A DNA stretch of 64,000 bases, taken from contig JAHFCH010000004.1 of the NCBI GenBank assembly GCA_023249635.1, forward strand, positions 13,730-77,729, read 5' to 3'. This DNA comes from Fibrobacterota bacterium. Its GTDB lineage: Bacteria > Fibrobacterota > Fibrobacteria > UBA11236. Both the position numbers and the translations under genes were made by a program. The first letter of the stretch is position 1. Each line of letters starts with the position of its first letter. Below the pieces are notes generated by a model. The model was not told the origin of the DNA. It worked only from the letters and a program-made list of their open reading frames with translations, and ran no database searches. Shown here piece after piece: positions 5,721 to 26,784 of this stretch.

Positions 5721-5744
5721 GGTGACAATATTGAAAGGGGTGGC

Positions 5745-6554: not shown

Positions 6555-6574
6555 TTCGAACCTCCAGAGGATGT

Positions 6575-6913: not shown

Positions 6914-6919
6914 GACCAT

Positions 6920-7062: not shown

Positions 7063-7689
7063 CTATGGAAAAATACTTTGAAAGGAAGGTTGCAGCCCTT
7101 TTGATTCGAGTAGGGGCAACGCCAAATCAACCCGTTCTCCATTCAATTTAACGATGCGGGCAGGAGTCCCGGCCACGGTACTGTTTGGCGGGACATTGCG
7201 CATGAATATGAAGGAGTTGGCCCCGATAAAGGAATTCGATCCGACATGGATGGGACCAAGGAGAACGCTATTTGTTCCAACATAGACGCGGTCGGCCAAT
7301 GTCGGGTGCCTTTTTTCCCGATGTTTACCCGTCCCGCCTAGGGTTACGTTATGAAAGAGGGTGCATTGATTCCCGATTACCGCGGTTTCTCCAATCACGA
7401 CTCCGGTTCCATGGTCGATGAAAAAATCCAGACCAATCTGTGCACCCGGATGGATTTCCACTCCGGACCAGAAACGGGCCAATACGGACAAAAGCCTCGG
7501 AATCAAGGGGACGCCGGACCGGAAAAGGCTATGGCTAATCCGATACAGTAAAATCGCATGGAGCGGGGTATGGCATAAAAGGGTTTCCAAACCGTTTTTC
7601 GACGCAGGATCATTCCTGCGAACCGCTGCGTAGTCTCGATAAAGGGTTCTGAACAAACCTGGTTTTGGAAACTTCGCGCCCGAACTCAT
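7063..7689 (-). CDS. cysE: Serine O-acetyltransferase (short CysE type, hexapeptide-repeat)
   Basis: The internal ATG at 7689 overlaps the pstB stop as ATGA (7689-7686). The segment GVEIHPGAQIGLDFFIDHGTGVVIGETAVIGNQCTLFHNVTLGG...RHPTLADRVYVGTNSVLLGPIHVG is the CysE left-handed beta-helix signature. Confidence 0.85.
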   Translation of the reverse strand: MSSGAKFPKPGLFRTLYRDYAAVRRNDPASKNGLETLLCHTPLHAILLYRISHSLFRSGVPLIPRLLSVLARFWSGVEIHPGAQIGLDFFIDHGTGVVIGETAVIGNQCTLFHNVTLGGTGKHREKRHPTLADRVYVGTNSVLLGPIHVGSNSFIGANSFIFMRNVPPNSTVAGTPARIVKLNGERVDLALPLLESKGLQPSFQSIFP

Positions 7690-9427: not shown

Positions 9428-10272
9428 GCCTGCCTGCTAGTCCGGGTTTGCGCCGTCGACATCAGGATCGCAACCAATACCATCATGATAAGCCCGGTGA
9501 AAAAAAGTGCTGAGCGATGCACATTCATCGCGAAAGGCATTTCCAGGGCGATGTTTGCCGTTAAGGTCCGGATAGGATTGAATACGCTTGTTGGGAAACG
9601 GACGACGTTACCGCATACCATAAGGATTGCCATCGTTTCACCAATGGAACGAGCCAGGCCAAGCAGAATGGAAACGCCTACTTGTTTCCGGAGATTGGGA
9701 AGGATCAACCCTTTTAGAGCGCCCCACTTGGATACCCCTAAGGCCACCGTGCTATTCAAGTACAAGCGGGAAAGATTCGCTATGGCATCATCCAAAATGA
9801 CCATGATGGTTGGCAGAATCATGATTCCCAACACGATGACGCCCGCAAGCAAACTGGGACCGGGAGGATGGATACGCGCGACCAGGGGAACGAGCGAAAC
9901 CAGACCCCAGAAGCCGAAGATTACCGAAGGGATACCCGCGAGTAAATGAACCATGGAACGATAGAATCCGGCAATTGCACTGGGGGCATAGAAATGACAG
10001 AAGAGTCCGGAGAGGATGCCCAGAGGCGTGGCAAATGCCACCGCGCCAACGGATACCAAAACCGAACCCCATAAAAGCGGTAGGACATTGTATTGATTCT
10101 CGGACGCGAACCAGGTTTCGTCCATCACGAATTGGCTCAGTCCGATACCGGCCATGGCCGGCACCGACTCCTTGGCCAGGAAAAAGAAAATAAAAATGGA
10201 AATGACGCCAGCCAGGCTGGCGCACACCGATAAGACGAAAAGGAAAGCCTTATCTTTTTGCCAGAGGGACAA
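9424..10272 (-). CDS. pstC: Phosphate ABC transporter permease PstC
   Basis: Polytopic permease with RSIGETMAILMVCG. The start codon at 10272 is TTG, so the exact start is uncertain. Confidence 0.8.
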   Translation of the reverse strand: MSLWQKDKAFLFVLSVCASLAGVISIFIFFFLAKESVPAMAGIGLSQFVMDETWFASENQYNVLPLLWGSVLVSVGAVAFATPLGILSGLFCHFYAPSAIAGFYRSMVHLLAGIPSVIFGFWGLVSLVPLVARIHPPGPSLLAGVIVLGIMILPTIMVILDDAIANLSRLYLNSTVALGVSKWGALKGLILPNLRKQVGVSILLGLARSIGETMAILMVCGNVVRFPTSVFNPIRTLTANIALEMPFAMNVHRSALFFTGLIMMVLVAILMSTAQTRTSRQA

Positions 10273-11083
10273 AATACTGGCCTTTCACGATTGAGTCGTT
10301 CTCCGGAGCAGCGGCGAATGCGATAAATTCCTTTGCTATTCCGGTAGGTTCGGTTTTGGTGACCAGGTTCAAAGGCCGGGATAGCGCGAATTTATGATCA
10401 ATCAACGCCTGCATCGACGGTTGGATCCCGTGCAAGGGAAGCAACTTGATCTGGGTTCCATGGGTTGCGTTGTATTCCGCGGTCCCGATTGAAACATAGG
10501 CGACGGAATAGGGGTTTCCCGCCACGGTCTTAATCCCTTGCTCATTGTCGCCTATAATGACATCAGCCTTGATATCCGGCAGCTTTAGTTTGGTATAGTG
10601 CAGGAACAATTCCAGGGTAGACCGCCCTTCGGCCTTATTCACGACCATGATCTGCTTGTCCAGTCCGCCGACATCTTTCCAATTCTTGACCCTCCCGGTG
10701 TAAATGGCGACGATCTGGGAATCAGTTAGTTCCTTGACCGGGTTGGTAGAATGGACAATGACGCAGATTCCATCCAGCGCAATGGGGTAGGACTTAAGAT
10801 CCTGCTCATCCTCCTTGAGAGCGCGGGAAACCATCCCGATGTCCGCCGTACCTTGGCGGGCATCCAAAACGCCTCTTGACGATCCGCCGGTCTGCACATC
10901 GACGCGGACGCCAGGATGAGTTTTCTCGAACTTCTTAGCCAAATCGCTTACCAGCGGGGCGATGGTGCTCGACCCTGTTAGGGTCAGTTTTCCGGTCAGG
11001 TTCTCTTGTCCTGCCGCATGATTCGATCCTGTCATGGCCAAATAAGCCAAGCAAAATACGGGAAGGCTGTATCGGATTGCCAT
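10250..11083 (-). CDS. pstS: Phosphate-binding protein PstS (PBP fold)
   Basis: Track ORF 10250-11167. I choose ATG 11083 because AGGAGA lies 6 nt upstream. The signal peptide is MAIRYSLPVFCLAYLAMTGSNHAAG. LTGSSTIAPL and QTGGSSRGV are typical PstS-family motifs. Confidence 0.8.
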   Translation of the reverse strand: MAIRYSLPVFCLAYLAMTGSNHAAGQENLTGKLTLTGSSTIAPLVSDLAKKFEKTHPGVRVDVQTGGSSRGVLDARQGTADIGMVSRALKEDEQDLKSYPIALDGICVIVHSTNPVKELTDSQIVAIYTGRVKNWKDVGGLDKQIMVVNKAEGRSTLELFLHYTKLKLPDIKADVIIGDNEQGIKTVAGNPYSVAYVSIGTAEYNATHGTQIKLLPLHGIQPSMQALIDHKFALSRPLNLVTKTEPTGIAKEFIAFAAAPENDSIVKGQYFVPLAKR

Positions 11084-11108
11084 ATTCATTCTCCTGTTCA
11101 TGGGTTGG

Positions 11109-12155
11109 TTAGTAGCTGAATTCCGTGTTGAGTGCGACCTTGTGCTGCAAGACTTGCTTGGAGTCATATGGCGAGATGGCTTGATAGTCTAAGGCCAGTT
11201 TGATGCCGTTGAACGGCGAATATTGCAAGCCCCCGATGTAGGTTTCCCCATCGGCGGCGGCATTCCAGTTGCCCTCCGAGGTCGCATAATCAATACGGCC
11301 GAAGACTTCCAGATTCGAAACGGTTTGGACCGCCGAATAAAGGGAGAGACCGGAAAGATCTTGCTTGTCAACGCCAAGATGGTTCATTTGGAAATCATAT
11401 TCCGCGCCGATCCTGAATTTCTTTGCAAGCGAGTATCCCAGGAAACCTGCGAGAGTAGTCTGCCCGGATGCATTGTCGACCGGCATATAGTCCCCGAAGC
11501 CGAATACGGTCACGCCCAAGGGGGCATTGAATTCGAACCCGCCACCGGTCTTGTAATTGCTATTCAGATCCTGTTGCGCGGTGAAACCCTCCCCCTGAAG
11601 GACGGAAGCATAAAGTTTCGTGGTCGGATGCACCTGGATCTGGACGTTGGCGCCTAGATCGGCCGAGGAACTGTATTTCTTCTCGTCCATCATGCTTTTT
11701 GCCACGTAACGATAGCCCCAGGCCTTTTCCTGGATAGCGAAAAGGCGCGTGCCTACCAGTCCCAATTCGAAGCACGTTAACGGAATGACTTGCTTGACTT
11801 CAAGGGAGGCATTCTTGAGGAAGGATTCGTATCGGGTCTCCTTCTTCGTCGACAGAACTTTCTTGGTCGTATCGAAGGCCCCGGAGTTCAACTCCCCCAA
11901 GCGGGCGACGTCGAGCACCAACCGGGACGAGTAGTTATCGCTCCAGTCATATTGGTACCCGAAATAAGCCCGGGTGATTTCCAGGCGTGAACCGTCCTGC
12001 CCGAAATAATCACGTGACCATTCCGAGAATGCCTTCACGATAGGCTTTCCCTTGGGTAGCTCCACCGTTTTAACCTGTAAGCTATCGGCTGCGTTCACGG
12101 TCACCGCAGCGGTTAAGGCCGCCAATACCAGTGATATCGAACACCTTTGATTCAT
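11109..12155 (-). CDS. Outer-membrane porin, possibly phosphate/anion-selective
   Basis: The signal peptide is MNQRCSISLVLAALTAAVTVNA. The body shows an alternating beta-strand pattern and ends aromatically (...LNTEFSY). It heads the pst genes. ATG 12170 is the alternative start. Confidence 0.6.
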   Translation of the reverse strand: MNQRCSISLVLAALTAAVTVNAADSLQVKTVELPKGKPIVKAFSEWSRDYFGQDGSRLEITRAYFGYQYDWSDNYSSRLVLDVARLGELNSGAFDTTKKVLSTKKETRYESFLKNASLEVKQVIPLTCFELGLVGTRLFAIQEKAWGYRYVAKSMMDEKKYSSSADLGANVQIQVHPTTKLYASVLQGEGFTAQQDLNSNYKTGGGFEFNAPLGVTVFGFGDYMPVDNASGQTTLAGFLGYSLAKKFRIGAEYDFQMNHLGVDKQDLSGLSLYSAVQTVSNLEVFGRIDYATSEGNWNAAADGETYIGGLQYSPFNGIKLALDYQAISPYDSKQVLQHKVALNTEFSY

Positions 12156-12281
12156 AGGATTCCCTTTCATCCGGATTTTCGTTGAGCGTATTCCGCCGCG
12201 GCAGGTGCGGCGAATCGAGATCGGGAGCAAATATACGATGATTGGTTTTGATCCAAATGAATTATTTGCCAATAACCCAAC

Positions 12282-12936: not shown

Positions 12937-13458
12937 ATGGAAAAGGCAAGCGCCGGGAGTTGTTGCACGACACCCTCGGAATCCCCGCTAAAGCACATGC
13001 AATCCTCAGTGCAATTCAAGGGTGCGATGCGCCCGCACATCAGCATCAACGTAGCGGACGTGTTACGTTCCGTGGAATTCTACCAGGCCCTGTTCGGTCA
13101 GAAGCCGGTAAAGACGAAATCCGACTACGCGAAGTTCGAACCCGAAAATCCTCCTGTGAACTTCGCAATCAACCAAGTCGATGTTCCCGGCAAGCGTGAT
13201 GGCCATTTCGGCATCCAGGTCAAGTCGAAGAAGGCCGTGCAGGATTTCGTGGAGCGCTTCCGGAAGACCGGAGTCAAGATCGAGGAAACCGAAAGCGCCG
13301 TGGCCTGCTGCTATTCGGTTCAAGACAAAGTGTGGCTCACCGATCCCGACGGAAACCATTGGGAGGTCTTTGTCGTAACCGAGAAGGAAGCCGACGAAGG
13401 GTGCGGCGTGACTTGCGTCTGTTACAATGCCGAAACCGGCGGCTGCGACTGGTCTTAG
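12937..13458 (+). CDS. arsI: ArsI C-As lyase (VOC/glyoxalase-fold Fe(II) dioxygenase), copy 1
   Basis: AAGGAG lies 6 nt upstream. The motifs PHISINV, DYAKF, GHFGIQV and VACCYSVQDKVWLTDPDGNHWEVFVV give the vicinal CC and the His/His/Glu pattern I recall for ArsI. The C-terminal tail is Cys-rich (CGVTCVCYNAETGGC). Confidence 0.85.
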   Translation: MEKASAGSCCTTPSESPLKHMQSSVQFKGAMRPHISINVADVLRSVEFYQALFGQKPVKTKSDYAKFEPENPPVNFAINQVDVPGKRDGHFGIQVKSKKAVQDFVERFRKTGVKIEETESAVACCYSVQDKVWLTDPDGNHWEVFVVTEKEADEGCGVTCVCYNAETGGCDWS

Positions 13459-13505
13459 ATCCGAAAACACGGGCATAAGCAAACACCCAAGAAAAGGAAT
13501 AGCGA

Positions 13506-14015
13506 ATGAAAAGCATATGGGAACGTGTCGCGGAATCGGAGAAGGTCGAGAACGACAGCGCTGTCGACTTCCCTACCGATAGCCGCATGCATGTCAGCCT
13601 CAACGTCTCAAACCTGGAAGAGTCGGCCAAATTCTACCGCGTGCTGCTCAACCAGAATCCAAGTAAGGTCAAAGAAGGGTACGTCAAGTTCGAGTCGGTC
13701 GAGCCCGCCATCAATCTAACCTTGAACGATTTCCCCAACGAGACCTCGACGGATGGCCACTTCGGAATCCAAGCCAAAGGGACGGAAGTCATCATGGCAA
13801 ACTACGACCGCTTCAAGGCCAGCGGCTTCAAAATCACCACCGAAGACGATATCGAGTGCTGTTACGCGGTTCAATCCAAAATCTGGGTGGCCGACCCGGA
13901 CGGGAACCGGTGGGAATTATTCGTGACCACCGCCCCTGAAGCGGAGGAAGGTTGCGGTCCCGAGTGCATTTGCCATCGGGAGTTCGAACGCAGTTACGTC
14001 ATCGAGGGCAAGTAA
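13506..14015 (+). CDS. arsI: ArsI C-As lyase, copy 2
   Basis: The motif set is the same as copy 1: MHVSLNV, GYVKF, GHFGIQA and IECCYAVQSKIWVADPDGNRWELFVT. The tail reads EEGCGPECIC. Confidence 0.85.
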   Translation: MKSIWERVAESEKVENDSAVDFPTDSRMHVSLNVSNLEESAKFYRVLLNQNPSKVKEGYVKFESVEPAINLTLNDFPNETSTDGHFGIQAKGTEVIMANYDRFKASGFKITTEDDIECCYAVQSKIWVADPDGNRWELFVTTAPEAEEGCGPECICHREFERSYVIEGK

Positions 14016-14063
14016 GCGAATTTTTCCCGAATCCAATTCTAAACATCCAACAAGGAGTCCATC

Positions 14064-14333
14064 ATGAAATTGAACAACATCAAATCCGTCAATGAGACCA
14101 AGAAAGGCGTTTCCGTCCATCTAGGCGGCGATATCGAGGTCGATAAGGTGAAGGCCATGGTCGCAAAATGCGGCACCGGAACCTGCAGCTGCTGCGGCCC
14201 CGAGTTCGTCCAAGCCCTCCAAGGCATCGACGTCGACGGGAAAGACGGAAGCGTAACCATGACTATCAAAGGCCCGGTTACCAAGGACGTCATTTCGGAA
14301 AAGCTCGCCATCTGCGACTGCTATAACACATGA
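14064..14333 (+). CDS. Small Cys-rich protein of unknown family (89 aa)
   Basis: AAGGAG lies 7 nt upstream. The protein has a KCGTGTCSCCGPE cluster and a C-terminal ICDCY. It has no signal peptide and matches no family I recognise. Confidence 0.6.
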   Translation: MKLNNIKSVNETKKGVSVHLGGDIEVDKVKAMVAKCGTGTCSCCGPEFVQALQGIDVDGKDGSVTMTIKGPVTKDVISEKLAICDCYNT

Positions 14334-14340
14334 ATAACCG

Positions 14341-14366
14341 TAGGGAAGCGCGCGCCTCCCTATTTT
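14341..14366 (+). terminator. Hairpin plus T-tract after the Cys-rich gene (terminator or attenuator)
   Basis: TAGGGAAG-CGCGCG-CCTCCCTA (one mismatch) is followed by TTTT, 8 nt after the stop at 14333. Confidence 0.5.
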
Positions 14367-14433
14367 CACAACCCGCGCAGGCATTGCCTCCGCCCAACAA
14401 TGACGGGGAGGGAAGCTCCCGGAGAAAGGAATT

Positions 14434-15408
14434 ATGAGTCAAAAAGTAGCCGAGAAAACAGACAAGCACGCATCAGTCGAGGAACTGTACAGCACCGCTG
14501 CAAAGGCGCCCCAACCCGGGCTATGCTGCCCCAAGCCCTACATGAACGAAATGACGGCCCACATCCCCAAGGAAGCCTTCGAATTCAACTACGGTTGCGG
14601 GAGCCCCGTCCTCAAAGCCGGGATCAAGGCCGGGGACACCGTAGTGGATCTCGGATCCGGAGTCGGGATTGACTGCTTCGTAGCCGCCAAGCTCGTAGGG
14701 CCCAAAGGCAAGGTGATCGGAATCGATCTCACCGAAGACATGCTTGCGAAGGCCAACAAATATAAAGCCATCGTCGCCCAAAACCTGGGATACGATGTGG
14801 TGGAATTCCGCAAGGGTCTGATCGAATCCATTCCGCTCGAAGCCCAATCCGCCGATGTCGTCCTCTCCAACTGCGTCGTCAACCTGTCCCCGGACAAGGA
14901 AAAGGTCCTCAATGACGTCCGTCGCGTACTGAAGATCGGCGGCCGCGCCGTGATCTCGGACATCGTAAGCGATCGCGATGTGGAACAGGTCCATCAGGAT
15001 GACAAGAAGCTATGGGCGGAGTGCTATACCGGCGCGCTTTCCGTGAAGGCGTTCCTGGAGGCGTTCAAGAAGGCCGGCTTCTACGGACTCTCCCAACTCG
15101 CCGAAACGGCATGGCAAGAAGTCGAAAGTTACAATTTCGCGTCCATCACCGTGGAAGCGTTCAACTATCCCAAGAGCTCGTGCTGCGGAGCACTCGATCA
15201 TTTCGCCGTTTATCTCGGGCCGTACGAATCAGTTGCGGACGAAGATGGCCACCAATTCCCCCGGTTCAAGGCGGTCCCGGTCTGCGCAGAGACCGCGTCA
15301 CGACTGGCTGGGAGCCCGTTCGAATCCAACTTCGTCGTGGCCTTCGCGGGTCGCGAACTCAAACCCGACGCCAATTCATGCGCCCCTGGGGGAGCCTGCT
15401 GCGGCTAA
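14434..15408 (+). CDS. Second, divergent ArsM-like SAM methyltransferase with C-terminal extension
   Basis: The N-terminal region has GLCCPKPY and NYGCGSP. The SAM motif is VVDLGSGVGIDCF, followed by SNCVVNLSPDK and WAECYTGA. An extra roughly 100 aa ends in SSCCG...CAPGGACCG. Confidence 0.75.
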   Translation: MSQKVAEKTDKHASVEELYSTAAKAPQPGLCCPKPYMNEMTAHIPKEAFEFNYGCGSPVLKAGIKAGDTVVDLGSGVGIDCFVAAKLVGPKGKVIGIDLTEDMLAKANKYKAIVAQNLGYDVVEFRKGLIESIPLEAQSADVVLSNCVVNLSPDKEKVLNDVRRVLKIGGRAVISDIVSDRDVEQVHQDDKKLWAECYTGALSVKAFLEAFKKAGFYGLSQLAETAWQEVESYNFASITVEAFNYPKSSCCGALDHFAVYLGPYESVADEDGHQFPRFKAVPVCAETASRLAGSPFESNFVVAFAGRELKPDANSCAPGGACCG

Positions 15409-15418
15409 GCCGGATGCG

Positions 15419-15452
15419 GGTATCCAGGGCAGAGCGTTTTGCCCTGGATACC
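15419..15452 (+). other. Perfect 13-bp inverted repeat between the methyltransferase and the PLP enzyme genes
   Basis: GGTATCCAGGGCA, loop gagcgttt, then TGCCCTGGATACC. There is no clean U-tract after it. It could be an attenuator, an RNA processing or stability element, or a protein-binding site. Confidence 0.5.
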
Positions 15453-15498
15453 ATACCGCATTTGTTACCCACTTTTCACCGAATGGAAGACTGATTGC

Positions 15499-16821
15499 AT
15501 GTTCACCCAAGCCGAAATCAAGGAACTCCGCAAGGATTTTCCCGCCTTGAACCAGGTTAATCCCAAAAACGGTCGGCCACCGGTCTATCTGGATAACAGT
15601 TGCATGACCATGAAGCCCTCGGCCGTTGCCGAAGCGGAATGGGACTATAACACCAAATACCCGGCCTGTGGGGGGCATCGGGGTAGCTATTGGTTCGCTG
15701 AAATCGTGCATGAAAAGGTCGAAGCCGCCCGGGCAGCGCTCGCATCTCTAATCAAGGCACCGGCAGCGAAAAGTTCCGAAGGGAAACCTCTTTACCCCAT
15801 CATCTTTACCCGGAACGCGACAGAAGGTTTGAATCTAGTGGCCTCTACCCTGGGTCTTATGCCCGGTGAAACCGTCCTTATAACCGACAAAGAACACAAT
15901 TCCAACCTGTGCCCCTGGCAGGAATTCGAGAAGCGAGGCGGCAAAGTCATCATCCTTGCCACCAAGGCGGACAACACGTTCGACATGCCTGCCTTCAAGG
16001 CCGCCCTGGCAAAAGACCGCTCCATCAAACTCGTCTCCCTCAACCACAGCTCAAACCTCGACGGGGTTACCAACCCTCTCCAACAAATCGTTAAGGCCGT
16101 TCGCGATACGGAAAAGAAGCAGGCCAGGAATATCTTTATCGCCGTTGATGGCGCCCAAAGCCTCCCCCATCTGCCGTTGAATCTTGGCGAACCCGAGGCG
16201 CCTGGCTTCCTCGACGTCGATTTTTTCGCCGGCTCCATCCATAAAATGTTAGGCCCCTCAGGCATCGGATTCCTCTATGGCAAGCCGGAACTTTTAGACT
16301 GCCTCCCGCCGTACATGGTCGGAGGGTCGACCATATACGAAACCTCGGCCTACCATCGACCGGTTTATGCCGAATGGCCCGCGCGATTCGAAGCGGGCTT
16401 GCAAAATTACGGTGGGATCATCGGTGCGGGTGCGGCGGTCAAATACCTTACCTCCATCCTGCCCCGCATCAAAGGCTATGAAAACCATTTGAACGGGATC
16501 CTGACCGATGTCCTGAAACCTCTGCACGCGGCCGGGAAAATCCGCATCCTCGGGCCCGAAGATGCCCACCAGCGGGGGGGGGTCCTTACCCTGCTGGCGC
16601 CGGAACGCCCGGAAGGAGATCGGATGCGGGCGCTGCGGGAAAAATCATGGCAGCACAACCTCATGTATCGAACCGGCCATTTCTGCGTTGACGTTTGGTT
16701 CTCGACCCGTCAGGACAAGCTCTATCCCGCTTACACGCCGATCCGCCTGTCGGCCTACTTCTACAACACCGAATCCGAAGTCGAGACAACCGCCAAGGTC
16801 ATCCGGGAAATATTCGCTTAG
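15499..16821 (+). CDS. Class-V aminotransferase, cysteine desulfurase / selenocysteine lyase-like (SufS/CsdA-like)
   Basis: Internal ATG of track ORF 15439-16821. The PLP lysine is in FFAGSIHKMLGPSGIGFLYG. The active-site loop is YRTGHFCVD (compare RTGHHCA of SufS). The N-terminal motif is RKDFPAL. Confidence 0.85.
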   Translation: MFTQAEIKELRKDFPALNQVNPKNGRPPVYLDNSCMTMKPSAVAEAEWDYNTKYPACGGHRGSYWFAEIVHEKVEAARAALASLIKAPAAKSSEGKPLYPIIFTRNATEGLNLVASTLGLMPGETVLITDKEHNSNLCPWQEFEKRGGKVIILATKADNTFDMPAFKAALAKDRSIKLVSLNHSSNLDGVTNPLQQIVKAVRDTEKKQARNIFIAVDGAQSLPHLPLNLGEPEAPGFLDVDFFAGSIHKMLGPSGIGFLYGKPELLDCLPPYMVGGSTIYETSAYHRPVYAEWPARFEAGLQNYGGIIGAGAAVKYLTSILPRIKGYENHLNGILTDVLKPLHAAGKIRILGPEDAHQRGGVLTLLAPERPEGDRMRALREKSWQHNLMYRTGHFCVDVWFSTRQDKLYPAYTPIRLSAYFYNTESEVETTAKVIREIFA

Positions 16822-16829
16822 GAACAATC

Positions 16830-17630
16830 ATGCCCACCAAGACTCTCCCCCACCCCCTCACGGCAGACCCATTCGATCGGACGAAACGCCGACTCTTTGA
16901 ATTGTACCGGATGGGAAGCAAGCCCTATCATGCTTGGTTCCATGGCTATGCCGAAATCACGGCCCGGTGCAGCAACAACAATCTCCATGCCTATGGCCTA
17001 TATGTAGGCATCGAAAAAGGCGTCATTACCCGAGTCGGCTACACCAAAGGCGCAGGTAAAGCCCGCAATGCGGCATCCACCGATGAGGTTCACGCTTCGG
17101 TTGCCGCTTTCTGCGGCTATGTCAAGGGGAAACGCATTGAAGACGCCTTGGCTGTGGATATGAAATCCATCCTGAGCCACTACGGCTGCTGGAATGGCCA
17201 CTCACCGGGCCTTCTGAAAACCTTGGAGCGTTCGCGACCGGAAGACCTGGTCCAGTTCAAGGCTACGACTCCGGATGCTCTGTTCAGCCTCGCTTTGGGT
17301 GGAGGCCTCCCTTTCGTTCTCCTGAACTGGGCGATTCTCAATTACACCATCAAGAACGAACTCGTCAATATCGTCGGGGATGCGGCACAGCCCTTCGTGC
17401 GGTTCAAGGACGTAAACCAGGCCCTTAAGTTGGTCAATGCCCTGAAGAATCACCCGGCCCTCGGGGCTCAACGAAGAGCGATGGAAATCGGCGTACGCGC
17501 GTTGCAATTCAATTCCGTGGATGATTCCAGCTTAAGGCTTGCATACCAACGGCATACCTTCGACGGATTCGCGAAGAACGCGAACGCCAAGGGATTTTAC
17601 ATCCTCGATCGATTCCTGTTGCTCAAGTGA
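16830..17630 (+). CDS. Degenerate IscU/NifU-N-like domain protein with an unknown C-terminal half
   Basis: ATG 16830 lies 8 nt after the desulfurase stop. By eye, ARCSNNNLHAYGLYVGIEKGVITRVGYTKGAGKARNAAS...FCGYVKGKRIEDAL aligns to IscU APACGDVMKLQIKV..GIIEDARFKTYGCGSAIASSS...WVKGKSLDEA. The second scaffold Cys is replaced by Ala. Confidence 0.5.
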   Translation: MPTKTLPHPLTADPFDRTKRRLFELYRMGSKPYHAWFHGYAEITARCSNNNLHAYGLYVGIEKGVITRVGYTKGAGKARNAASTDEVHASVAAFCGYVKGKRIEDALAVDMKSILSHYGCWNGHSPGLLKTLERSRPEDLVQFKATTPDALFSLALGGGLPFVLLNWAILNYTIKNELVNIVGDAAQPFVRFKDVNQALKLVNALKNHPALGAQRRAMEIGVRALQFNSVDDSSLRLAYQRHTFDGFAKNANAKGFYILDRFLLLK

Positions 17631-17658
17631 ACCCCGGCAATTCTGAAAGGACAGGGAA

Positions 17659-20600
17659 ATGAAAAAGAGCTTTCTCGTCGATTTCTCAATCAAGCGACCC
17701 AAGACCGTCATTGGCCTTACCATGGCGCTTACCGCCATAATGATGCTTCCCTTCCCGAAGGTGAAGCTGGATACCAATCCAAAAAATATGCTGCCGCCCG
17801 ATGCGGAAGTCCGCATTTGGAATGCCGAGGTGGAGAAAACCTTCGGTCTTTACGAAGATCTGATCGTCGTAGGCGTGACCAACCCGGCAGGGGTGATGAA
17901 CAATACCACCCTTAAAAACATTTCCGTATTGACCGATGGGATCCAGAAAATCACGGGGGTGGCCGCCGCCGATGTATCCAGCTTGGTCAACGTGGATGAT
18001 GTCTCCGCGAATGGCAAATCCCTGGAAGTCAAACCGATCGTCAGCGGACTGCCATTGGAGGAAAAGGATCTGGCTGAAATCGGCGCCTCGGCGATAGCCA
18101 ATCCGCTGCTTGCCGAAAAACTGCTTTCCAAGGACGGAAAGACCACCGCCGTTTATGTCCCCATGGAAAAAGGCGCCAATGGAAAAGTGATCGCGGAAGC
18201 CATCAAGTCCATGATCGCGAAACTGCCGGTTTCCGGAAAAGGGGGTGACAAATTCTTTGTCACAGGCGACCCGGTAGCCAGGGACACTTTCGGCGATTTC
18301 ATGTTCAAGCTGATGGCGGTATTTTCCCCGGTGTCCTGCTTTCTCATGATCGCAGCCATGTACCTGATGTTCCGAAGCATCCCGCTGTGCATCAGCATGA
18401 TGGCCGTCTCGAATATCGCGATCATCTGGAGCGTTGGCCTGGTAATCGCTTTGGGGTTCCCCATCCATCTGATGGCCTCAATGGCCCCGGTCTTTCTGAT
18501 GGCTATCGCGACCGATAGCATCCACATTTTCACGGAGTTTTACTTCCGTTATGCAGAAACCCGGGACCGTAAGCGCGCAATCCTGGAGACCATGGCGGTT
18601 GTAAGCCATCCCGTGAAGTACACCGCATTGACGACTGCGGTGGCTTTTTCCGTGCTCCTATTCATGAAAATCATACCGGTCCAGGTATTCGGAGGCATGA
18701 TCGCCTTCGGCACCATCGCGCTTCGGCTTCTCAGCTTCTCATTCATACCCGCCATCATGGCCCTGCTTGGTGAGAAATCCCTGCTGAAAGTCGCCGCGAA
18801 ATCCCAGGCTTCCGCGGGGCGCCCGGCCGGATTCTTGCGTGGTCTGGCAATGGCCGGCGCCGGCAATCCCCGCCTTGTCGTAGGCGTTGGATTGATATTG
18901 TGCGCGCTGTCCATCGTGGGGATTTCCCGGGTCGTCGTGAACAACAACATGGTCGAATGGTTCAACAAGAAAAATGAAGTCCGAATCGCCGATATGGCGC
19001 TGAATAAAAGCCTCGGGGGCACCTCGCTAGGGTACATGGTTGCCATTGCCGATCCCGGCCAAGGTGAATACATGAAGACCCCCGAGGGACTGCGGTTCCT
19101 TGCGGGACTTCAGCGTAGGTTGGAAAACATCCCGGAAGTCGGCAAGACCAGTTCCATCGCCGACATCGCATCCCGCATCAATCTTGTGTTGCACGGGAAC
19201 GACCCCGTCTACGCAGGCATACCTAAGACCAAGGAAGAAGCCGGGCAATTCCTCTTTCTTTTCTCAATGTCCGCCAAACCGTCGGACGTGAAAAACCTGG
19301 TGGATGACTCCTACGGGAAGGCGAACGTCTGGATCCAGATGAAAACCTGGGATGCTAAGGCGATGCGGTCGGTGATACGTGAATCCCAAGCCTATTTGAG
19401 GGAAAATCCTGCGCCCGTACAATTGAAACCCGCGGGTATCGCCTACTTCAACCTGGCGTGGAACGACGAAGTCCTTTACGATATGTTGAAGGGCTTCGTG
19501 TTGGCCATCTGCGTGGTTTATTCCATCCTCGTATTGAATTTCCGTTCCTTCAAGTGGGCCTTGATAAGCTACGTACCCCTCCTCTTCACTATTCTCCTTA
19601 TCATCGGAATGGTGGGCTTCGTCGGCAAGGACCTCGACATGCCCATCTCCGTCTTGTCCTGCCTTTCCCTGGGCATGGCGGTCGATTTCGCCATCCATTT
19701 CATCAACCGCTTCCGGCAGAAGATGGCTGACAGCGGGTACACGGGGACCGCTGCCGAAGTCAGGGAATGCCTCCTCTGGACCGCTTCGCGGCCGGGTCGC
19801 GGCATTCTGCGGAACGCAATCCTTTTCGGATCGGCATTCCCGGTGATGATGCTTTCTCCCCTGACCCCATATGTCACGGTGGGTGCTTTCATCCCCAGCA
19901 TGATGATTCTAAGCGCATTCCTGACTCTACTGTACCTTCCGGCCCTAATCGTGCTCCTCCGCAAATGGCTATTCAACGGGCAACAAGCGGGACGCGCGGG
20001 AAAACCCGCGGCAGCGGAAAATCTTTCGGTTTCCGCCATGAAAATGGGTCTGTTGCTTATTGGCTCAATCGCGATTCCGCTTCATTCCGAAGAAAACCCG
20101 GCCGCAATAGTGAAGGCTTACCAGAACTCCTTCTATTACCAAGGCTCAACCTTTCGCGGGCGCCTCAAATTGAGCCTGATTGATGCGGACGGAAAGGCCC
20201 GTACCAAAGACATGACCATGGTTCGCGCCACCACGGTTCCCGGAGCGGATCAACGGTACTTCATGTATTTCCATGCCCCAGGCGACGTAAAGGGCATGTC
20301 CTTCCTGGTTTTCAAGTACCCGAACAAGGAAAGCGATCGTTGGCTGTTTATCCCCAGCGTTGACATGGTGCAGCGCATCGCCGCACGGGATGCGGGCTCC
20401 AGTTTCGTGGGATCCGATTTCTCCTATCAGGATATCTCCGGACGGTCAATGGAGGCTGACGAATTCTCCTATGTGAAAGAGGAATTAGTGGCCGGAAAGA
20501 AGTGCCAGGTAGTAGCCAGCGTTCCAAAAAGCAGCGCTGGCTATACCAAGAAGACGTCCTGGATTGACGTGGAGACGTTCCTCCCCATTAAGGAGGAGTA

Positions 20601-20817
20601 TACAGACGTTCAGGGTAAAGTCTTCAAGCGATTCACGGCCGATAGCATTGCCGATCTTTCCGGCCACCCGTTAGTCGTAAGGGGAACTATGACCAACCTC
20701 AAGACCAATCACTCTTCCAAATTCGAATTCAGCGATGTTGCATATGACTTTAAAGCCAACGGGGACGAATTCACTGAGAGGGCCCTCCGGAATCCGCCTC
20801 GGGGTTGGATCAATTGA
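17659..20817 (+). CDS. MMPL/RND-superfamily exporter (COG1033-like, 12 TM) fused in frame to a LolA-like 'outer membrane lipoprotein-sorting' domain
   Basis: The 1052-aa ORF has two 6-TM bundles with large periplasmic loops. From about aa 794 it reads FRGRLKLSLIDADGK...VKGMSFLVFKYPNKESDRWLFIPSVDMVQRIAARDAGSSFVGSDFSYQDISGR, the LolA-like (DUF4367/PF17131-type) signature as I recall it. Confidence 0.8.
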   Translation: MKKSFLVDFSIKRPKTVIGLTMALTAIMMLPFPKVKLDTNPKNMLPPDAEVRIWNAEVEKTFGLYEDLIVVGVTNPAGVMNNTTLKNISVLTDGIQKITGVAAADVSSLVNVDDVSANGKSLEVKPIVSGLPLEEKDLAEIGASAIANPLLAEKLLSKDGKTTAVYVPMEKGANGKVIAEAIKSMIAKLPVSGKGGDKFFVTGDPVARDTFGDFMFKLMAVFSPVSCFLMIAAMYLMFRSIPLCISMMAVSNIAIIWSVGLVIALGFPIHLMASMAPVFLMAIATDSIHIFTEFYFRYAETRDRKRAILETMAVVSHPVKYTALTTAVAFSVLLFMKIIPVQVFGGMIAFGTIALRLLSFSFIPAIMALLGEKSLLKVAAKSQASAGRPAGFLRGLAMAGAGNPRLVVGVGLILCALSIVGISRVVVNNNMVEWFNKKNEVRIADMALNKSLGGTSLGYMVAIADPGQGEYMKTPEGLRFLAGLQRRLENIPEVGKTSSIADIASRINLVLHGNDPVYAGIPKTKEEAGQFLFLFSMSAKPSDVKNLVDDSYGKANVWIQMKTWDAKAMRSVIRESQAYLRENPAPVQLKPAGIAYFNLAWNDEVLYDMLKGFVLAICVVYSILVLNFRSFKWALISYVPLLFTILLIIGMVGFVGKDLDMPISVLSCLSLGMAVDFAIHFINRFRQKMADSGYTGTAAEVRECLLWTASRPGRGILRNAILFGSAFPVMMLSPLTPYVTVGAFIPSMMILSAFLTLLYLPALIVLLRKWLFNGQQAGRAGKPAAAENLSVSAMKMGLLLIGSIAIPLHSEENPAAIVKAYQNSFYYQGSTFRGRLKLSLIDADGKARTKDMTMVRATTVPGADQRYFMYFHAPGDVKGMSFLVFKYPNKESDRWLFIPSVDMVQRIAARDAGSSFVGSDFSYQDISGRSMEADEFSYVKEELVAGKKCQVVASVPKSSAGYTKKTSWIDVETFLPIKEEYTDVQGKVFKRFTADSIADLSGHPLVVRGTMTNLKTNHSSKFEFSDVAYDFKANGDEFTERALRNPPRGWIN

Positions 20818-22064
20818 AATCGATTGTTCCTTTGGCCGCCTTAAAAGTGGCGGCTGTGCTTGCGTATGGCCAACCCGTGGACGTTTCGGGCGGACTCAAT
20901 GCCGTCTATTCCGCCAGGGTGGGAAATCATCCGGAACCCAATCCGGTGTCAGGTTCATTCCTGGCGGGAGAGGAAATTCTAAGGCTGAAGGCGGAGGCAC
21001 GATCGGAATCCGGTAGCGGTGGGTTTATGGCCCTCGTGGAAAACACCTACGACAACCTTAGCCAAGATAACCGATTGGATATCCGTGAGGCATACGCCAC
21101 CCTTCCATTAGGCGCATTCGATATCCGGGCCGGCAAACAGATCATCACGTGGGGAACCGGAGATTTCCTCTTTATCAATGATTTCTTCCCCAAGAACTAC
21201 GCCGCATTCTACGCTGGCCTACCCATTGATCATCTAAAGGAGGGCCTGACCGCACTAAGGATTTCGGGCTATAGTTCAGCGGCGAATCTTGAAATCGTAG
21301 CCACCCCATTTTTCCAGGAAAACATTTTCCCCGGCCAGGATCGATTCATTTTGCCTAAAGATCCCGCGGGCGGCCTCGCCCCGCCCCTCATTCATCCTTC
21401 CCTCCGGTTTGAAAACGGAGAAGTGGCGATTCGCCTTTACCGCAACATCCTGGGTTGGGATGCGGGCCTTTATGGGTACACCGGGCATAACCGACAGCCC
21501 ACCTTGCAGATTTTACCTGCGGATACGGGGGCCAATCTTCGGATCGCCTTCCCTCAAATTGCCTCCGGGGGAATCAGCCTTACCGGCAGCCTACCCCTGG
21601 CCGTGATCAACCTGGAAGCCGGATTTTCCCATCCGTTCGCCGATGGCGCGTGGAAGGCCCCGCTTCTCCCGGATCAAGAATTGAAATTTCTCGGCGGATT
21701 AAAAGCCGGACAGACAGGGGCATGGTCACTCGGCGTCCAATATTATGCCGAGCTCAACGAATTCAATCCCAATACCGCGAACATGCGATCCGGGAATCCT
21801 TTTGTGCCGGAAAATATCCACCAAATATTGACATCCAGTCTGGACTTGAGCCCGGGTTACCAGACTTTGCGAATCTATTGCTTCGCCTACTACGACCTTA
21901 CCTACCGGGAATCCTTAGTCATGCCGGAAATATCCTACCAGGTTACCGATCGGGCGACGATCGCTCTCGGCGGTCGCGGCTATTACGGAAACGGTGATCC
22001 AAGAAGCTTTGGTTACTATGGCTCGAATGATTGTGTGTTCACCCGCGTCTCGTATAGTATCTGA
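20805..22064 (+). CDS. Putative outer-membrane beta-barrel partner of the exporter
   Basis: TTG starts at 20805 or 20814; the latter overlaps the upstream stop as TTGA. The signal-like N-terminus is KSIVPLAALKVAAVLAYG. The body is rich in Y/G/N alternating segments. The C-terminus is ...FTRVSYSI. I cannot assign a family. Confidence 0.5.
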   Translation: MDQLKSIVPLAALKVAAVLAYGQPVDVSGGLNAVYSARVGNHPEPNPVSGSFLAGEEILRLKAEARSESGSGGFMALVENTYDNLSQDNRLDIREAYATLPLGAFDIRAGKQIITWGTGDFLFINDFFPKNYAAFYAGLPIDHLKEGLTALRISGYSSAANLEIVATPFFQENIFPGQDRFILPKDPAGGLAPPLIHPSLRFENGEVAIRLYRNILGWDAGLYGYTGHNRQPTLQILPADTGANLRIAFPQIASGGISLTGSLPLAVINLEAGFSHPFADGAWKAPLLPDQELKFLGGLKAGQTGAWSLGVQYYAELNEFNPNTANMRSGNPFVPENIHQILTSSLDLSPGYQTLRIYCFAYYDLTYRESLVMPEISYQVTDRATIALGGRGYYGNGDPRSFGYYGSNDCVFTRVSYSI

Positions 22065-22068
22065 ACCC

Positions 22069-23358
22069 ATGAATATGCGCGCAACGCCCTATTTCCAAAC
22101 CCAGGTGATCGGCTGTGGGCCGGGCGCTTTGGGGTTGGCAGTTGCTGCCGACAGGTTGAAACTGCTGGACTCCCTGCTTGGGCAAGGGATCGCTTTCTTG
22201 GAAAAGGCGCCGAATCCGAAGGAACTATTCAACCAGCGGTTTCCCTTTCTCATCGAATCCAATTCTATTGCCGACGACTTTTTCAAATCCATCGATAGCG
22301 AAGGCGCCTTCTCGGAAACCTGCCGGAATGAAAATTCCAGGCTCGTATTCTCACGAGAAGGCCGCACCCTACCCCTTGAATTGATAAAAGCCTTCATGAA
22401 CGACTTAACCAAAGCTTTCCTGGAAAAATGCTGCTTCTCCGGGGCCAGCGGAATCTTTTTTGGCCGGGAAATCGATCATCTTCAAATCGGTGAAGATGGG
22501 TCTGTAACGAGCTTCAATCGTTCCGGAGCGCCTATCGCCAAGTCCATGTACGCAGTGCTGGCGACTGGGGCGGGAGAAAACCTGCCTTTACATGCGCATG
22601 GTCCAGGCAATCTTTTCCATTTCCTTCCTTCCGGTGAGGTTTTATCCGGAAAATTCGCTGAGATCTCCCGGGAAATAGCCTCCGGTAAGCCAATCATCAT
22701 TCTCGGCGGTTCCCATAGCGCCTTTTCGGTTGCGCTTTTAATCCTTGATCGCTTCGGTTCCCGGCTCTCCACCGGCCAAATCCAACTTTACCACCGCGGC
22801 GTCTGCCTTTACTTTACCTCCCAACGCGAAGCTTCAGAATCCGGCTACTTCCTTCCCGGAGCGCATATTTTCCGCTCTACCGGGGAGGTGAATAAATTCA
22901 ATGGCTTGCGAGGAAGGGCGAAAAACCTCTATCAGCAAGTTCAATCCGGCATAGAAATGCGCGTCTCCGTAAAAGGCAAAAACGCATACGCGGATTTCCT
23001 CGCCAAAGCGGAATTCCCCGCCCTTATCATTCAGGCTACCGGATATAAGACTCGCCGAATCGGAATCATAAACCACATGGGCGTGCCCATCCGTAATCTG
23101 CATTCCAATAAGAACTGCATGGTCGATTCCCAATGCCGCCTACTCGATTCCTCGGGGGAAATCCTGCCCAACCTCTTCGGCATCGGCATCGGATATCCCC
23201 GCCTGAGCGAGAACAAGGAATTGAAAATCGGAGTCAATTTCTTCCATGGGCCGGATGGGGAAACCATCGTGCGGCAGATCGTATCGCCGTCAAAGACTAC
23301 CGTCTCCGCTGAGACTGCGCTTGCATCAAACTCAAACCTGAATGGAGTCCCAAGTTGA
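22069..23358 (+). CDS. FAD/NAD(P)-dependent flavoprotein monooxygenase, N-hydroxylase (SidA/IucD/PvdA)-like or FMO-like
   Basis: Internal ATG 4 nt after the upstream stop. The motifs are VIGCGPGALGLA (GxGxxG), AVLATGAGE, IIILGGSHSAFSVA (second dinucleotide motif, GGxxSA) and IIQATGYK (ATGY motif). Confidence 0.65.
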   Translation: MNMRATPYFQTQVIGCGPGALGLAVAADRLKLLDSLLGQGIAFLEKAPNPKELFNQRFPFLIESNSIADDFFKSIDSEGAFSETCRNENSRLVFSREGRTLPLELIKAFMNDLTKAFLEKCCFSGASGIFFGREIDHLQIGEDGSVTSFNRSGAPIAKSMYAVLATGAGENLPLHAHGPGNLFHFLPSGEVLSGKFAEISREIASGKPIIILGGSHSAFSVALLILDRFGSRLSTGQIQLYHRGVCLYFTSQREASESGYFLPGAHIFRSTGEVNKFNGLRGRAKNLYQQVQSGIEMRVSVKGKNAYADFLAKAEFPALIIQATGYKTRRIGIINHMGVPIRNLHSNKNCMVDSQCRLLDSSGEILPNLFGIGIGYPRLSENKELKIGVNFFHGPDGETIVRQIVSPSKTTVSAETALASNSNLNGVPS

Positions 23359-23474
23359 ACAAGGACAAACTCTCCAAGGCAATCGGCAACTCCCCGGAGG
23401 CGAACAGCTCTGTAACCTGGTCGAATAACCTGAAACGCGGGCGGGTTCCCGGACCCAGGATGAAGGAAAACAAA

Positions 23475-24656
23475 ATGCTTCCCGATACGTTGGGGGGCTC
23501 TACCATCGCAGTGCATGGGGGAACCTATGAGGATCCGATCACCGGTGCGGTCGGGACTCCTATTTTCCAAAGCAGCACCTTCAACTTTTCCAAGCACACG
23601 TACGATTCATTCGCACAAGGCCTGATTCGGGATATCCCGACCTATACGCGGTATGGCAACCCTACCGTTTGGAGCACCCAGGAAAAGATTTCCCAGCTTG
23701 AAAACGCGGAGAGCACCATTCTGTTTTCCTCGGGAATGTCCGCAATCACCACGACGCTGGTAGGCCTTACGAATCGTGGGGGGCATATCATCAGTTCCTT
23801 TGACGTGTACGGGGGAACGTATAACTTCCTCCGGGAGGATATCCATCAGTTGGGGCGTGAGACGACTCTCGTGGATGGCACCGACCTTGCCGCCGTCGAT
23901 GCCGCGATAAAACCCAATACCCAGGTCCTTTTTTTCGAAACACTTTCCAACCCGCTCCTGAAGGCGCTTCCGCTACGCGGCCTCGCCTCGCTGGCCAAAG
24001 CCAGGAATCTTCTGCTTGTCGTCGACAACACCTTTCTCTCCCCTATCTGCCTCCGTCCCCTCGATGAAGGGGTTGATATCGTCCTGCACAGCTGTTCCAA
24101 ATACATGAATGGCCACAGCGACCTAATTGCCGGATCGGTCTCCGGATCAAGAAAATATGTCGACCGTATCTGGTCGCAAATGCTCAAGTTCGGCGGCAAC
24201 GTGAATCCGCTTTCCGCCTTTCTTTTGGAACGCGGCCTGAAAACGCTTGCTTTACGCATGCAGGCACATGTCTCCAATTCCAAGCAGCTGGCCGCGTTCC
24301 TTGCGAATCATCCCAAGGTCACACGCGTGCATCACCCGTCCTTGCCCAACTACGAATATCCGTGGATTCAAGAATATTGCCGGAACGGGTACGGAGGGAT
24401 GGTCAGCTTCGAAGTGAAAGGCGGGAACGAAGCGGCGCTGGCTTTACTCACCCATTTGAAAATCCCGCTCGTCGCCACAAGTTTGGGCGGCGTAGAGTCC
24501 TTGATCTCTTTGCCTTTCAATACGTCCCATTCCTTTCTAACCGAAAAGCAACGCCAACAAATCGGCATCATGCCGGGTCTTATCCGCCTCTCCGTGGGCG
24601 TCGAGAACATCCAGGACCTCACGGCCGATTTCGATACGGCGCTCGGTCAGATTTAA
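23475..24656 (+). CDS. Cys/Met-metabolism PLP enzyme (cystathionine gamma-synthase / gamma-lyase / O-acyl-homoserine sulfhydrylase family)
   Basis: The PLP lysine is in HSCSKYMNGHSDLIAG. Other motifs are AVHGG...PIFQSSTF, YTRYGNPT and VVDNTF. I chose ATG 23475 because AAGGAA lies 6 nt upstream. Alternatives are ATG 23460 or TTG 23355, which overlaps the upstream stop. Confidence 0.85.
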   Translation: MLPDTLGGSTIAVHGGTYEDPITGAVGTPIFQSSTFNFSKHTYDSFAQGLIRDIPTYTRYGNPTVWSTQEKISQLENAESTILFSSGMSAITTTLVGLTNRGGHIISSFDVYGGTYNFLREDIHQLGRETTLVDGTDLAAVDAAIKPNTQVLFFETLSNPLLKALPLRGLASLAKARNLLLVVDNTFLSPICLRPLDEGVDIVLHSCSKYMNGHSDLIAGSVSGSRKYVDRIWSQMLKFGGNVNPLSAFLLERGLKTLALRMQAHVSNSKQLAAFLANHPKVTRVHHPSLPNYEYPWIQEYCRNGYGGMVSFEVKGGNEAALALLTHLKIPLVATSLGGVESLISLPFNTSHSFLTEKQRQQIGIMPGLIRLSVGVENIQDLTADFDTALGQI

Positions 24657-24689
24657 AGCAGGACACCCTCCAAACCATCGGGAGCAAAG

Positions 24690-25949: not shown

Positions 25950-25973
25950 ACCCGAAACGGGAGGGGATTTGAG

Positions 25974-26315: not shown

Positions 26316-26347
26316 TACCTAGCCAGGAGACCATCACTTTGAAGAAG

Positions 26348-26725: not shown

Positions 26726-26784
26726 TTCCCCGAACCGATCCGGAATTTTGCCGATCTTTTTGGCCCGGGCCTACTATGAAGTAT

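Follow-up and report, generated by a model that had tools for sequence, protein, structure and literature searches.

Why would an arsenic gene island carry its own cysteine desulfurase homologue, and what is the protein encoded directly behind it? The question is raised by a 64,000-nucleotide stretch of a Fibrobacterota bacterium contig (the window, meaning the whole stretch of DNA that was analyzed), in which a gene for a SufS-like pyridoxal phosphate (PLP) enzyme is followed on the same strand by a gene for a 266-residue partner. An earlier reading of the window, made from the letters and their translations without database searches (the sequence-only reading), had described the pair as a cysteine desulfurase-like enzyme with a degenerate U-type scaffold inside an ars operon. 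The best overall explanation, which falls somewhat short of an even call and is held tentatively, is that the two genes would form a dedicated two-component sulfur-mobilizing relay. The pair is laid out as follows.

15499..16821, plus strand: SufS-like (type II) cysteine desulfurase homologue, 440 aa, ATG start
16830..17630, plus strand: predicted U-fold (IscU/SufU-like) partner, 266 aa, ATG start, with an extra conserved C-terminal helical subdomain (residues ~183–266)

The stop codon of the enzyme gene lies 8 nt before the partner start, the partner stop lies 28 nt before the next gene, and purine-rich stretches precede both the enzyme and the partner genes. Selection was measured against L018, a syntenic metagenome contig with 76% nucleotide identity to the window (labels beginning with L and P denote related loci and proteins). 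The ratio of nonsynonymous to synonymous substitution rates (dN/dS) is 0.02 for the enzyme and 0.06–0.07 for the partner, with synonymous sites saturated. Both genes are real and under strong purifying selection. A pseudogenized or ‘degenerate’ scaffold was considered and rejected, the partner dN/dS being 0.07. All of the motifs quoted in the sequence-only reading were located: GSIHKMLG and RTGHFC in the enzyme, and ARCSNN, GVITRVGYTKGAGKARNAAS and YVKGKRIEDAL in the partner.

The enzyme matches the Pfam aminotransferase class V family (PF00266, Aminotran_5) over residues 29–429 with E = 2.1e-69 and 234.7 bits against a cut-off of 21.5. The best NCBIfam model is TIGR01979 (sufS) at 270.8 bits, which is under its 475.1-bit cut-off, and the 203 bits obtained with NF006791 do not reach the cut-off of 661; the enzyme falls below the curated SufS cut-offs and therefore represents a divergent subfamily. 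Its closest relatives in the PDB are plant NFS2, Synechocystis SufS, Mycobacterium tuberculosis SufS, Bacillus subtilis SufS and Escherichia coli SufS/CsdB (E 1e-55 to 1e-47). Residues were mapped onto E. coli SufS (EcSufS), a reference sequence that aligns over its full length. The EcSufS positions kept in the window enzyme and 13 clade members are His55, Arg56, His123, Asn175, Asp200, Gln203, Ser223, His225, Lys226, Arg359, Cys364 and Arg379; the catalytic Cys, Arg359 and Arg379 are invariant across the SufS-like clade and the His362 position is variable. The departures from EcSufS are the replacement of His124 by Asn and of His363 by Phe, the latter giving the RTGHFC loop. Two additional Cys residues are conserved, one in a PxCGGHR motif near the His55 loop and the other in an NLCPW motif after His123. 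The alignment to EcSufS and the PDB relatives bear out the assignment of the first gene to the SufS/CsdA-type desulfurases, the PLP-binding Lys and the catalytic Cys both being in place.

A search of 5.8 billion proteins shows how sharply this clade is bounded. About 17 cluster representatives share 54–61% identity with the window enzyme, and identity then falls abruptly to ≤46%. The wider SufS-like group below this step (P0016–P0087, 40–46% identity) is annotated to archaea and candidate phyla (Methanoperedens, Patescibacteria, Zixibacteria, TA06, WOR-3) and shares the other conserved EcSufS positions, the His124 to Asn and His363 to Phe replacements (FC for HC) and the extra Cys, with Gly or Glu at the position of His55. 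The enzyme is a genuine homologue of the type II cysteine desulfurases and belongs to a subfamily of its own, with cysteine desulfurase as its predicted activity.

SufS/CsdB enzymes also cleave selenocysteine, the PDB relative 1jf9 is named a selenocysteine lyase and some relatives of the window enzyme are annotated as cysteine desulfurase / selenocysteine lyase, so a different substrate has to be weighed at this point. The enzyme could be a selenocysteine lyase, or could act on another chalcogen or cysteine conjugate, with the cluster handling selenium, As–Se or As–cysteinyl conjugates, and Rdx-family genes and OsmC-related (seleno)protein models do occur nearby. Against it, selD and selA/B genes are lacking, every neighbor to which a function can be assigned is arsenic-related, and the conserved catalytic Cys is what persulfide chemistry expects. 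A selenium role is rated very improbable.

Sequence methods find no family for the partner. The partner and all 13 family members were compared with Pfam and NCBIfam and gave nothing relevant up to E = 10, including no match to NifU_N (PF01592) or SufE. A partner profile searched against PDB sequences returned no IscU or SufU and a single chance match (E 0.78), and neither E. coli IscU nor B. subtilis SufU scored significantly in BLASTP (E 13–14). Alignment of the partner family to a four-sequence IscU/SufU alignment with hhalign gave E 0.02–0.04 at a probability of 1–2%, and it pairs the same segment that the sequence-only reading had aligned by eye with IscU, covering strand 2, strand 3, helix 2 and helix 3. 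The IscU query sequence was checked and is identical to 2l4x. The partner thus constitutes a new protein family that is invisible to all of the sequence hidden Markov model (HMM) libraries tried.

Structure prediction gives a different result. An AlphaFold2 model built from two sequences was unusably poor (predicted local distance difference test, pLDDT, 41), and the model built from the 13-sequence family alignment reached a pLDDT of 79.8 and a predicted template modeling (TM) score of 0.81. Foldseek comparison of this model with the PDB returned 30 matches at E ≤ 0.001, and the top 50 are all IscU, SufU or NifU N-domain structures. The best match is 4eb5_C (E 7.5e-5), match probabilities are 0.99–1.00 and sequence identity is 10–17%. 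Target-normalized TM scores are mostly 0.55–0.71, with 0.39–0.5 for several B. subtilis and other SufU chains. A viral Foldseek library, used as the negative control, gave no match. These results predict an IscU/SufU-like U-type fold for the partner, which is supported by structure prediction and Foldseek and not by sequence methods. The likeness to IscU seen by eye therefore stands at the level of the predicted fold and falls at the level of sequence significance in BLASTP, hhalign and HMM comparisons.

The model starts with a helix (residues 14–26) followed by three strands (39–46, 52–62 and 65–74), a second helix (85–98), two short helices (103–107 and 111–117), a helical insertion (126–157) and a long core helix (159–182), an order of elements that agrees with the IscU topology. 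Residues up to ~182 would thus make up the U fold, a boundary drawn from secondary-structure order rather than from a residue-level superposition. Residues 183–266 form an additional helical subdomain in the model that contains the most conserved motif of the family, built from Arg216, Arg223, VD231xSSLR236xAY239Q240R241 (labeled VDxSSLRxAYQR) and G255F256, and the searches made gave this subdomain no assignment to any known family or fold. The C-terminal ~130 residues had been called unrecognizable in the sequence-only reading; the part up to ~182 is better placed in the predicted U fold, and the description holds for the extra subdomain at ~183–266.

The cysteines of the partner distinguish it from a scaffold. 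There are exactly three, Cys47, Cys95 and Cys120. Cys47 lies directly after strand 1 in the motif ITA[RK]CS-x4-H, is kept in every member that covers the region, and occupies the place of IscU Cys37 and SufU Cys41. Arg46, His53 and Lys77 are also among the conserved residues. Cys95 is found family-wide near the C-terminal end of helix 2, approximately at IscU Thr74 in the profile alignment, and Cys120 is lineage-specific, being confined to the closest relatives. The place of IscU Cys63 is taken by a G-x-G-K loop of low model confidence and that of His105-Cys106 by GGxLPF at the start of the long helix. Mapped by secondary-structure order and a weak profile alignment rather than by superposed coordinates, the IscU ligands are reduced to the Cys37 equivalent (Cys47), with Cys63, Cys106, Asp39 and His105 absent, and the SufU zinc ligands to the first Cys, with a variable residue two positions after it and Asp43, Cys66 and Cys128 absent. 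Loss of the IscU-type ligands had been anticipated, with an Ala proposed at the second Cys; that position is the G-x-G-K loop (Gly/Ala). The three cysteines had also been proposed to form a three-thiolate As(III) site, a proposal that fails because Cys120 is not conserved and only Cys47 and Cys95 are family-wide, leaving no conserved site of this kind. With these ligands lost, the partner cannot be a conventional [2Fe-2S] scaffold or a zinc-dependent SufU. Retention of the predicted U fold, loss of two of the three ligands and gain of Cys95 and an Arg-rich C-terminal subdomain argue that the partner carries sulfur or acts as an adaptor and is not an Fe-S scaffold.

These observations bear directly on an Fe-S role, in which the pair would serve specifically under stress to assemble or repair clusters and so replace those damaged by arsenic; the sequence-only reading had offered Fe-S repair as its alternative. 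A SufS-type enzyme with a U-fold protein is the classical pairing for Fe-S assembly, and As(III) damages Fe-S proteins. Only one of the three IscU/SufU ligand cysteines remains, however, with two of the three missing throughout the partner family, the Asp and His ligands are gone as well, and there is no NifU_N HMM match. A tblastn search of the window with IscU, SufU and SufE and inspection of the gene tables of the related loci gave no sufBCD, iscA, hscBA or fdx near the pair, and the pair is never found outside a cluster with ArsI, ArsM and exporter genes. Fe-S repair is consequently disfavored and is considered improbable.

With 11 true relatives, 28–37% identical, recovered when 1.84 billion representatives were searched exhaustively with HMMER, the partner family is exceedingly rare. 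Word-indexed searches returned the self entry and one 83% relative when the single partner was used, and three proteins, all already known, with the family profile. A genome-collection scan with P0005 found one Aquisalimonadaceae metagenome-assembled genome (MAG), and the same scan with the window partner gave no match. In all 13 loci retrieved, the partner gene either directly follows a gene of the SufS-like clade or is fused to one; on the short contigs L010 and L016 the fragment upstream of the partner is the C-terminus of the enzyme. Full enzyme-partner fusions are found in P0007 (721 aa, one of the 11 relatives) and P0025 (725 aa, from a Myxococcota MAG), which are 80% identical and therefore represent one fusion lineage in two independent assemblies. 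The related loci include both the Aquisalimonadaceae and the Myxococcota MAGs, and the pair is present in at least Gammaproteobacteria and Myxococcota.

A fused desulfurase and acceptor recalls the architecture of the molybdenum cofactor sulfurases (with their NifS-like domain; compare also IscS-FdhD), and molybdopterin oxidoreductase genes lie within 10 kb of the pair in L012 and L013. The relay might sulfurate a cofactor or protein of the cluster, for example the molybdenum cofactor of a neighboring arsenite oxidase or arsenate reductase-type enzyme. The acceptor domain, however, is a predicted U fold and neither MOSC nor FdhD, and no molybdoenzyme is encoded within the operon in the window, L004, L007, L014, L017 or L018, which makes cofactor sulfuration a highly improbable role.

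The genomic setting of the pair in the window is a low-GC island at ~4000–26700, with a GC content of 0.51–0.56 compared to ~0.60–0.68 in the flanks, that holds all of the ars-related genes. The genes of the island other than the pair are listed in order.

4230-6919: MIP channel, ArsC, ArsR, ArsM, ArsR
7063..7689, minus strand: serine O-acetyltransferase (CysE/EpsC-like); NF041874 201 bits, TIGR01172 193 bits
7686..11167, minus strand: PstSCAB-like ABC transporter (PstB 7686-8507, PstA 8534-9427, PstC 9424-10272, PstS 10250-11167), from translations of the open reading frames (ORFs) and PBP_like_2
11109-12272, minus strand: 387-aa protein adjoining PstS, signal-like N-terminus, no family match, 71% identical in L018
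12397..12741, minus strand: ArsR-family repressor with ArsR/SmtB-type sequence, divergent from the ArsI-to-exporter operon
12937..13458, plus strand: ArsI/CadI-family VOC protein 1, vicinal Cys-Cys pair and Cys-rich tail; NF041414 132.8 bits (cut-off 116)
13506..14015, plus strand: ArsI/CadI-family VOC protein 2; NF041414 126.8 bits (cut-off 116)
14064..14333, plus strand: small Cys-rich protein, 89 aa, KCGTGTCSCC ... CDCYN; no family match, dN/dS 0.03
14434..15408, plus strand: ArsM-like As(III) S-adenosylmethionine methyltransferase, cluster-specific; Pfam Methyltransf_31 and NCBIfam arsenite methyltransferase models
17659..20817, plus strand: MMPL/HAE3-type RND transporter fused to a LolA-like (TP_0789-like) domain, 1052 aa; PF03176, PF17131
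20805..22064, plus strand: putative outer-membrane protein; weak DUF1302 similarity (PF06980, 1.7e-08)
22069-23358, plus strand: putative flavoprotein with GxGxxG; no significant Pfam or PDB match, sub-threshold Pyr_redox_2 (E 0.081)
23355-24656, plus strand: Cys/Met-metabolism PLP enzyme of the cystathionine-gamma-synthase/O-acetylhomoserine sulfhydrylase type
24690-25949, plus strand: double OsmC protein
25974-26315, plus strand: ArsR
26300-26725, plus strand: ArsC of the low-molecular-weight protein tyrosine phosphatase type

The array from ArsI to ArsC (12937-26725) runs in one direction with short or overlapping junctions. The arsenic context that had been read from the sequence is thus confirmed, with ArsR, two ArsI/CadI proteins and ArsM upstream of the pair, ArsR and ArsC downstream, and further ars genes at 4230-6919. 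Between the ArsM-like and SufS-like genes, which are 90 nt apart, a perfect 11-bp inverted repeat lies at 15421-15450 (TATCCAGGGCA, an 8-nt loop, TGCCCTGGATA) with no T-run after it. A promoter and terminator scan performed no better than on shuffled sequences, and the 15421-15450 repeat is absent from its terminator calls. Scans for tRNA and Rfam families found none anywhere in the 64-kb window.

The same association recurs in the related loci. Synteny was assessed from a tblastn table and the gene tables of these loci, in which the core proteins are only 30–60% identical to those of the window. The recurring core consists of two to four ArsI-like proteins, the small Cys-rich protein, the ArsM-like protein, the SufS-like and U-like pair, an MMPL transporter, a LolA/TP_0789-like protein and an outer-membrane protein. 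Wherever the contig extends far enough to reveal neighbors (L004, L007, L012, L013, L014, L015, L017 and L018), the pair is found together with ArsI-like and ArsM-like genes, and in L003 its neighbors are ArsR and Pst. In six distinct related loci the gene directly preceding the SufS-like gene encodes an orthologue of the ArsM-like protein (52–56% identity), often with a very long Cys-rich (CC/GCG-rich) tail, and in L018 the identity is 89%. Both ArsI/CadI proteins are conserved, and orthologues of the small Cys-rich protein are present at ~40% identity in L004, L012, L013, L014 and L015 and at 93% in L018. The MMPL and LolA-like parts are fused in the window and L018 and are encoded by separate adjacent genes in L004, L007, L012, L013 and L014; homologues of the outer-membrane protein (27–28% identity) are found in L007, L012 and L014. 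A Pst-like transporter lies alongside the pair in L003, L007, L012 and L014, ArsR-type (HTH_20/HTH_5) regulators are present in L003, L012 and L015, and the CysE-like serine acetyltransferase gene is shared by the window, L015 and L018. Within this conserved cluster for processing arsenic in the cytoplasm and exporting it, the pair is a built-in component. It was found only inside the cluster that contains ArsI and ArsM, and an ordinary SUF paralogue, or a SUF/ISC paralogue that occurs elsewhere without ars genes, is rejected because the genomic context is this conserved ars cluster.

The wealth of Cys motifs in the cluster is unusual and invites a reading in which the relay supplies sulfide or persulfide for intracellular sequestration of As(III), either as As–S(–Cys) complexes on Cys-rich proteins and tails or as arsenic sulfide precipitates. 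Thiols would be offered by the small protein (KCG..C..CC, CDCYN), by the Cys-rich ends of the ArsI-like proteins and by the very long tails of ArsM-like orthologues, and the pair is strictly linked to these Cys-rich genes. The conserved RND/LolA-like/outer-membrane exporter that adjoins the pair points instead to an exported product, and no storage-type protein was identified in the cluster. Sequestration is considered unlikely. The small Cys-rich protein, the ArsI-like tails and the CC/GCG-rich ArsM-like tails could form a hand-over chain for As(III). A C-x-C-[YH] motif resembling that of the small Cys-rich protein ends both ArsI-like proteins.

The SufS-SufU and SufS-SufE systems provide the paradigm for how a sulfur relay of these two proteins would operate. 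The SufS-type enzyme would convert L-cysteine to alanine and bind the released sulfur in persulfide form at the RTGHFC Cys, the persulfide would be handed to the partner, most likely onto Cys47, and Cys95 with the extra C-terminal subdomain would fit the partner to a new acceptor. Adjacency and fusion of the two genes suggest that their products work together. The pair is quite probably a persulfide relay, and its role is very probably tied to arsenic. As(III) species take up sulfane sulfur oxidatively, yielding thio-As(V) species; ArsI is an O2-dependent enzyme, and the lineages that carry the cluster are mostly aerobic, settings in which free sulfide is scarce. The acceptor might, speculatively, be the trivalent arsenicals that the neighboring ArsM-like, ArsI-like and small Cys-rich proteins produce or bind, and a thio-arsenical as the product of the relay is a possibility that remains speculative. 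The thio-arsenicals would then be expelled through the adjacent HAE3-type RND/LolA-like/outer-membrane exporter. The order ArsM-like, SufS-like, U-like and exporter found in most loci would correspond to methylate, thiolate and export, and the CysE in the island would raise the cysteine supply, its presence in three loci fitting a stoichiometric demand. Systems composed of an HAE3 RND pump, a LolA-superfamily protein and a DUF1302 protein export apolar compounds, with monoterpenes as the documented case (PMC6394551). The complete scheme, an undescribed, conserved pathway that takes sulfane sulfur from cysteine, attaches it enzymatically to trivalent (methyl)arsenicals made by the ArsM of the cluster and sends the products out through this exporter, is put forward tentatively and is doubtful as a whole.

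Several considerations weigh against thiolation by the relay. The relationship of the partner to IscU comes from a structure predicted with a 13-sequence alignment, and sequence-only methods see nothing of it. The identity of the acceptor is drawn from the gene neighborhood alone, and Cys47 is the most likely persulfide-accepting residue, with Cys95 as the other candidate. Thiolation of arsenic is currently ascribed to abiotic reaction with sulfide produced by microbial sulfate reducers (PMC10630088), and an enzyme may therefore not be needed. The ArsI-like proteins, if they are true C–As lyases, would oppose ArsM.

Several other genes of the island may feed into arsenic or sulfur metabolism. 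The 387-aa protein at 11109-12272 may be an anion-selective porin for the Pst-like transporter. The flavoprotein, the PLP enzyme and the double OsmC protein, together with CysE, could take part in making or using up an amino acid that contains sulfur or arsenic, and a gamma-replacement with an arsenical nucleophile by the products of 22069-25949 is imaginable. The operon tail from 22069 to 26725 is conserved in L018 only, where the counterpart of the flavoprotein, PLP enzyme and OsmC genes spans 15141-19027. Larger versions of the cluster are found in L012 (4941-9867 and 12157-21393), L013 (1-8350) and L014 (3877-8536); these carry four glyoxalase/ArsI-like genes, DUF924, two more methyltransferases, a sigma-70-family factor or response regulator, Rdx-family small proteins and, by domain content, an Aio/Arr/Arx-type molybdopterin oxidoreductase. 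Immediately outside the island in the window lies a 738-aa ORF that is rich in Ala, Lys and Glu and contains repeats (26914-29130, minus strand); a long antisense ORF at 26776-29205 overlaps it.

Thiolated arsenicals such as the thioarsenates and dimethylmonothioarsinic acid (DMMTA) are environmentally and toxicologically important, and we know of no dedicated enzyme for arsenic thiolation. Full-text literature searching turned up no account of the pair and no paper that ties a cysteine desulfurase, NifS or an IscU-like protein to ars clusters or to the thiolation of arsenic. The pair, with its private non-scaffold acceptor of predicted U fold in a cluster of ArsM, ArsI and exporter genes, is a concrete candidate for enzymatic As–S chemistry. 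If the scheme is true, no earlier enzyme system would be dedicated to thiolating arsenic, and the partner would be the first case of a U-fold protein put to new use as a sulfur carrier for a metalloid. Apart from arsenic thiolation, the partner family presents a predicted IscU/SufU fold that has lost its metal site and gained a domain, and the analysis defines a conserved multi-gene arsenic cluster.

Comparison with known systems places the pair among the desulfurase-acceptor couples and sets it apart from each of them. The exporter resembles AmeABCD of Castellaniella defragrans, which also combines an RND/MMPL pump with a LolA-like (DUF1329) protein and a DUF1302-like outer-membrane protein and exports apolar monoterpenes (PMC6394551); the exporter of the cluster differs in that its DUF1302 similarity is weak (1.7e-08) and the LolA-like part is fused to the pump in the window. 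Foldseek ranks IscU structures (4eb5_C, 7c8m, 3lvl_A and human ISCU complexes) closest to the partner model, which likens the pair to IscS-IscU and NifS-NifU. Unlike IscU and NifU, the partner has one of the three cluster cysteines, lacks the LPPVK/His105-Cys106 motif and has no PF01592 match, and unlike the type I enzymes IscS and NifS, the enzyme is of type II and SufS-like.

The resemblance to SufS-SufE and CsdA-CsdE is one of logic, in that a non-scaffold acceptor would take a persulfide from a type II enzyme and hand it onward. The SufE fold is related to that of IscU. In contrast to SufE and CsdE, neither of which is among the top 50 Foldseek matches, the partner has no SufE HMM match, two conserved cysteines instead of one and a different genomic context. 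SufS-SufU of B. subtilis and M. tuberculosis likewise has a type II enzyme encoded beside a U-fold protein, and SufU structures are among the Foldseek matches. SufU is a zinc-dependent sulfurtransferase in which Cys41 is the sulfur acceptor, and the partner model keeps the first Cys after strand 1 (Cys47) and an insertion that separates helix 4 from the final helix of the core. The partner is unlike SufU in having no detectable sequence similarity to it, in the absence of the zinc ligands Asp43, Cys66 and Cys128 and in its extra Cys95 and ~85-aa C-terminal subdomain, and the pair is unlike SufS-SufU in that the enzyme scores under the NCBIfam SufS cut-off and the genes are linked to ArsM, ArsI and exporter genes rather than to sufBCD. 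Set beside these systems, the pair is a type II desulfurase homologue with a novel family of predicted U-fold acceptors that has been recruited to an undescribed arsenic cluster.

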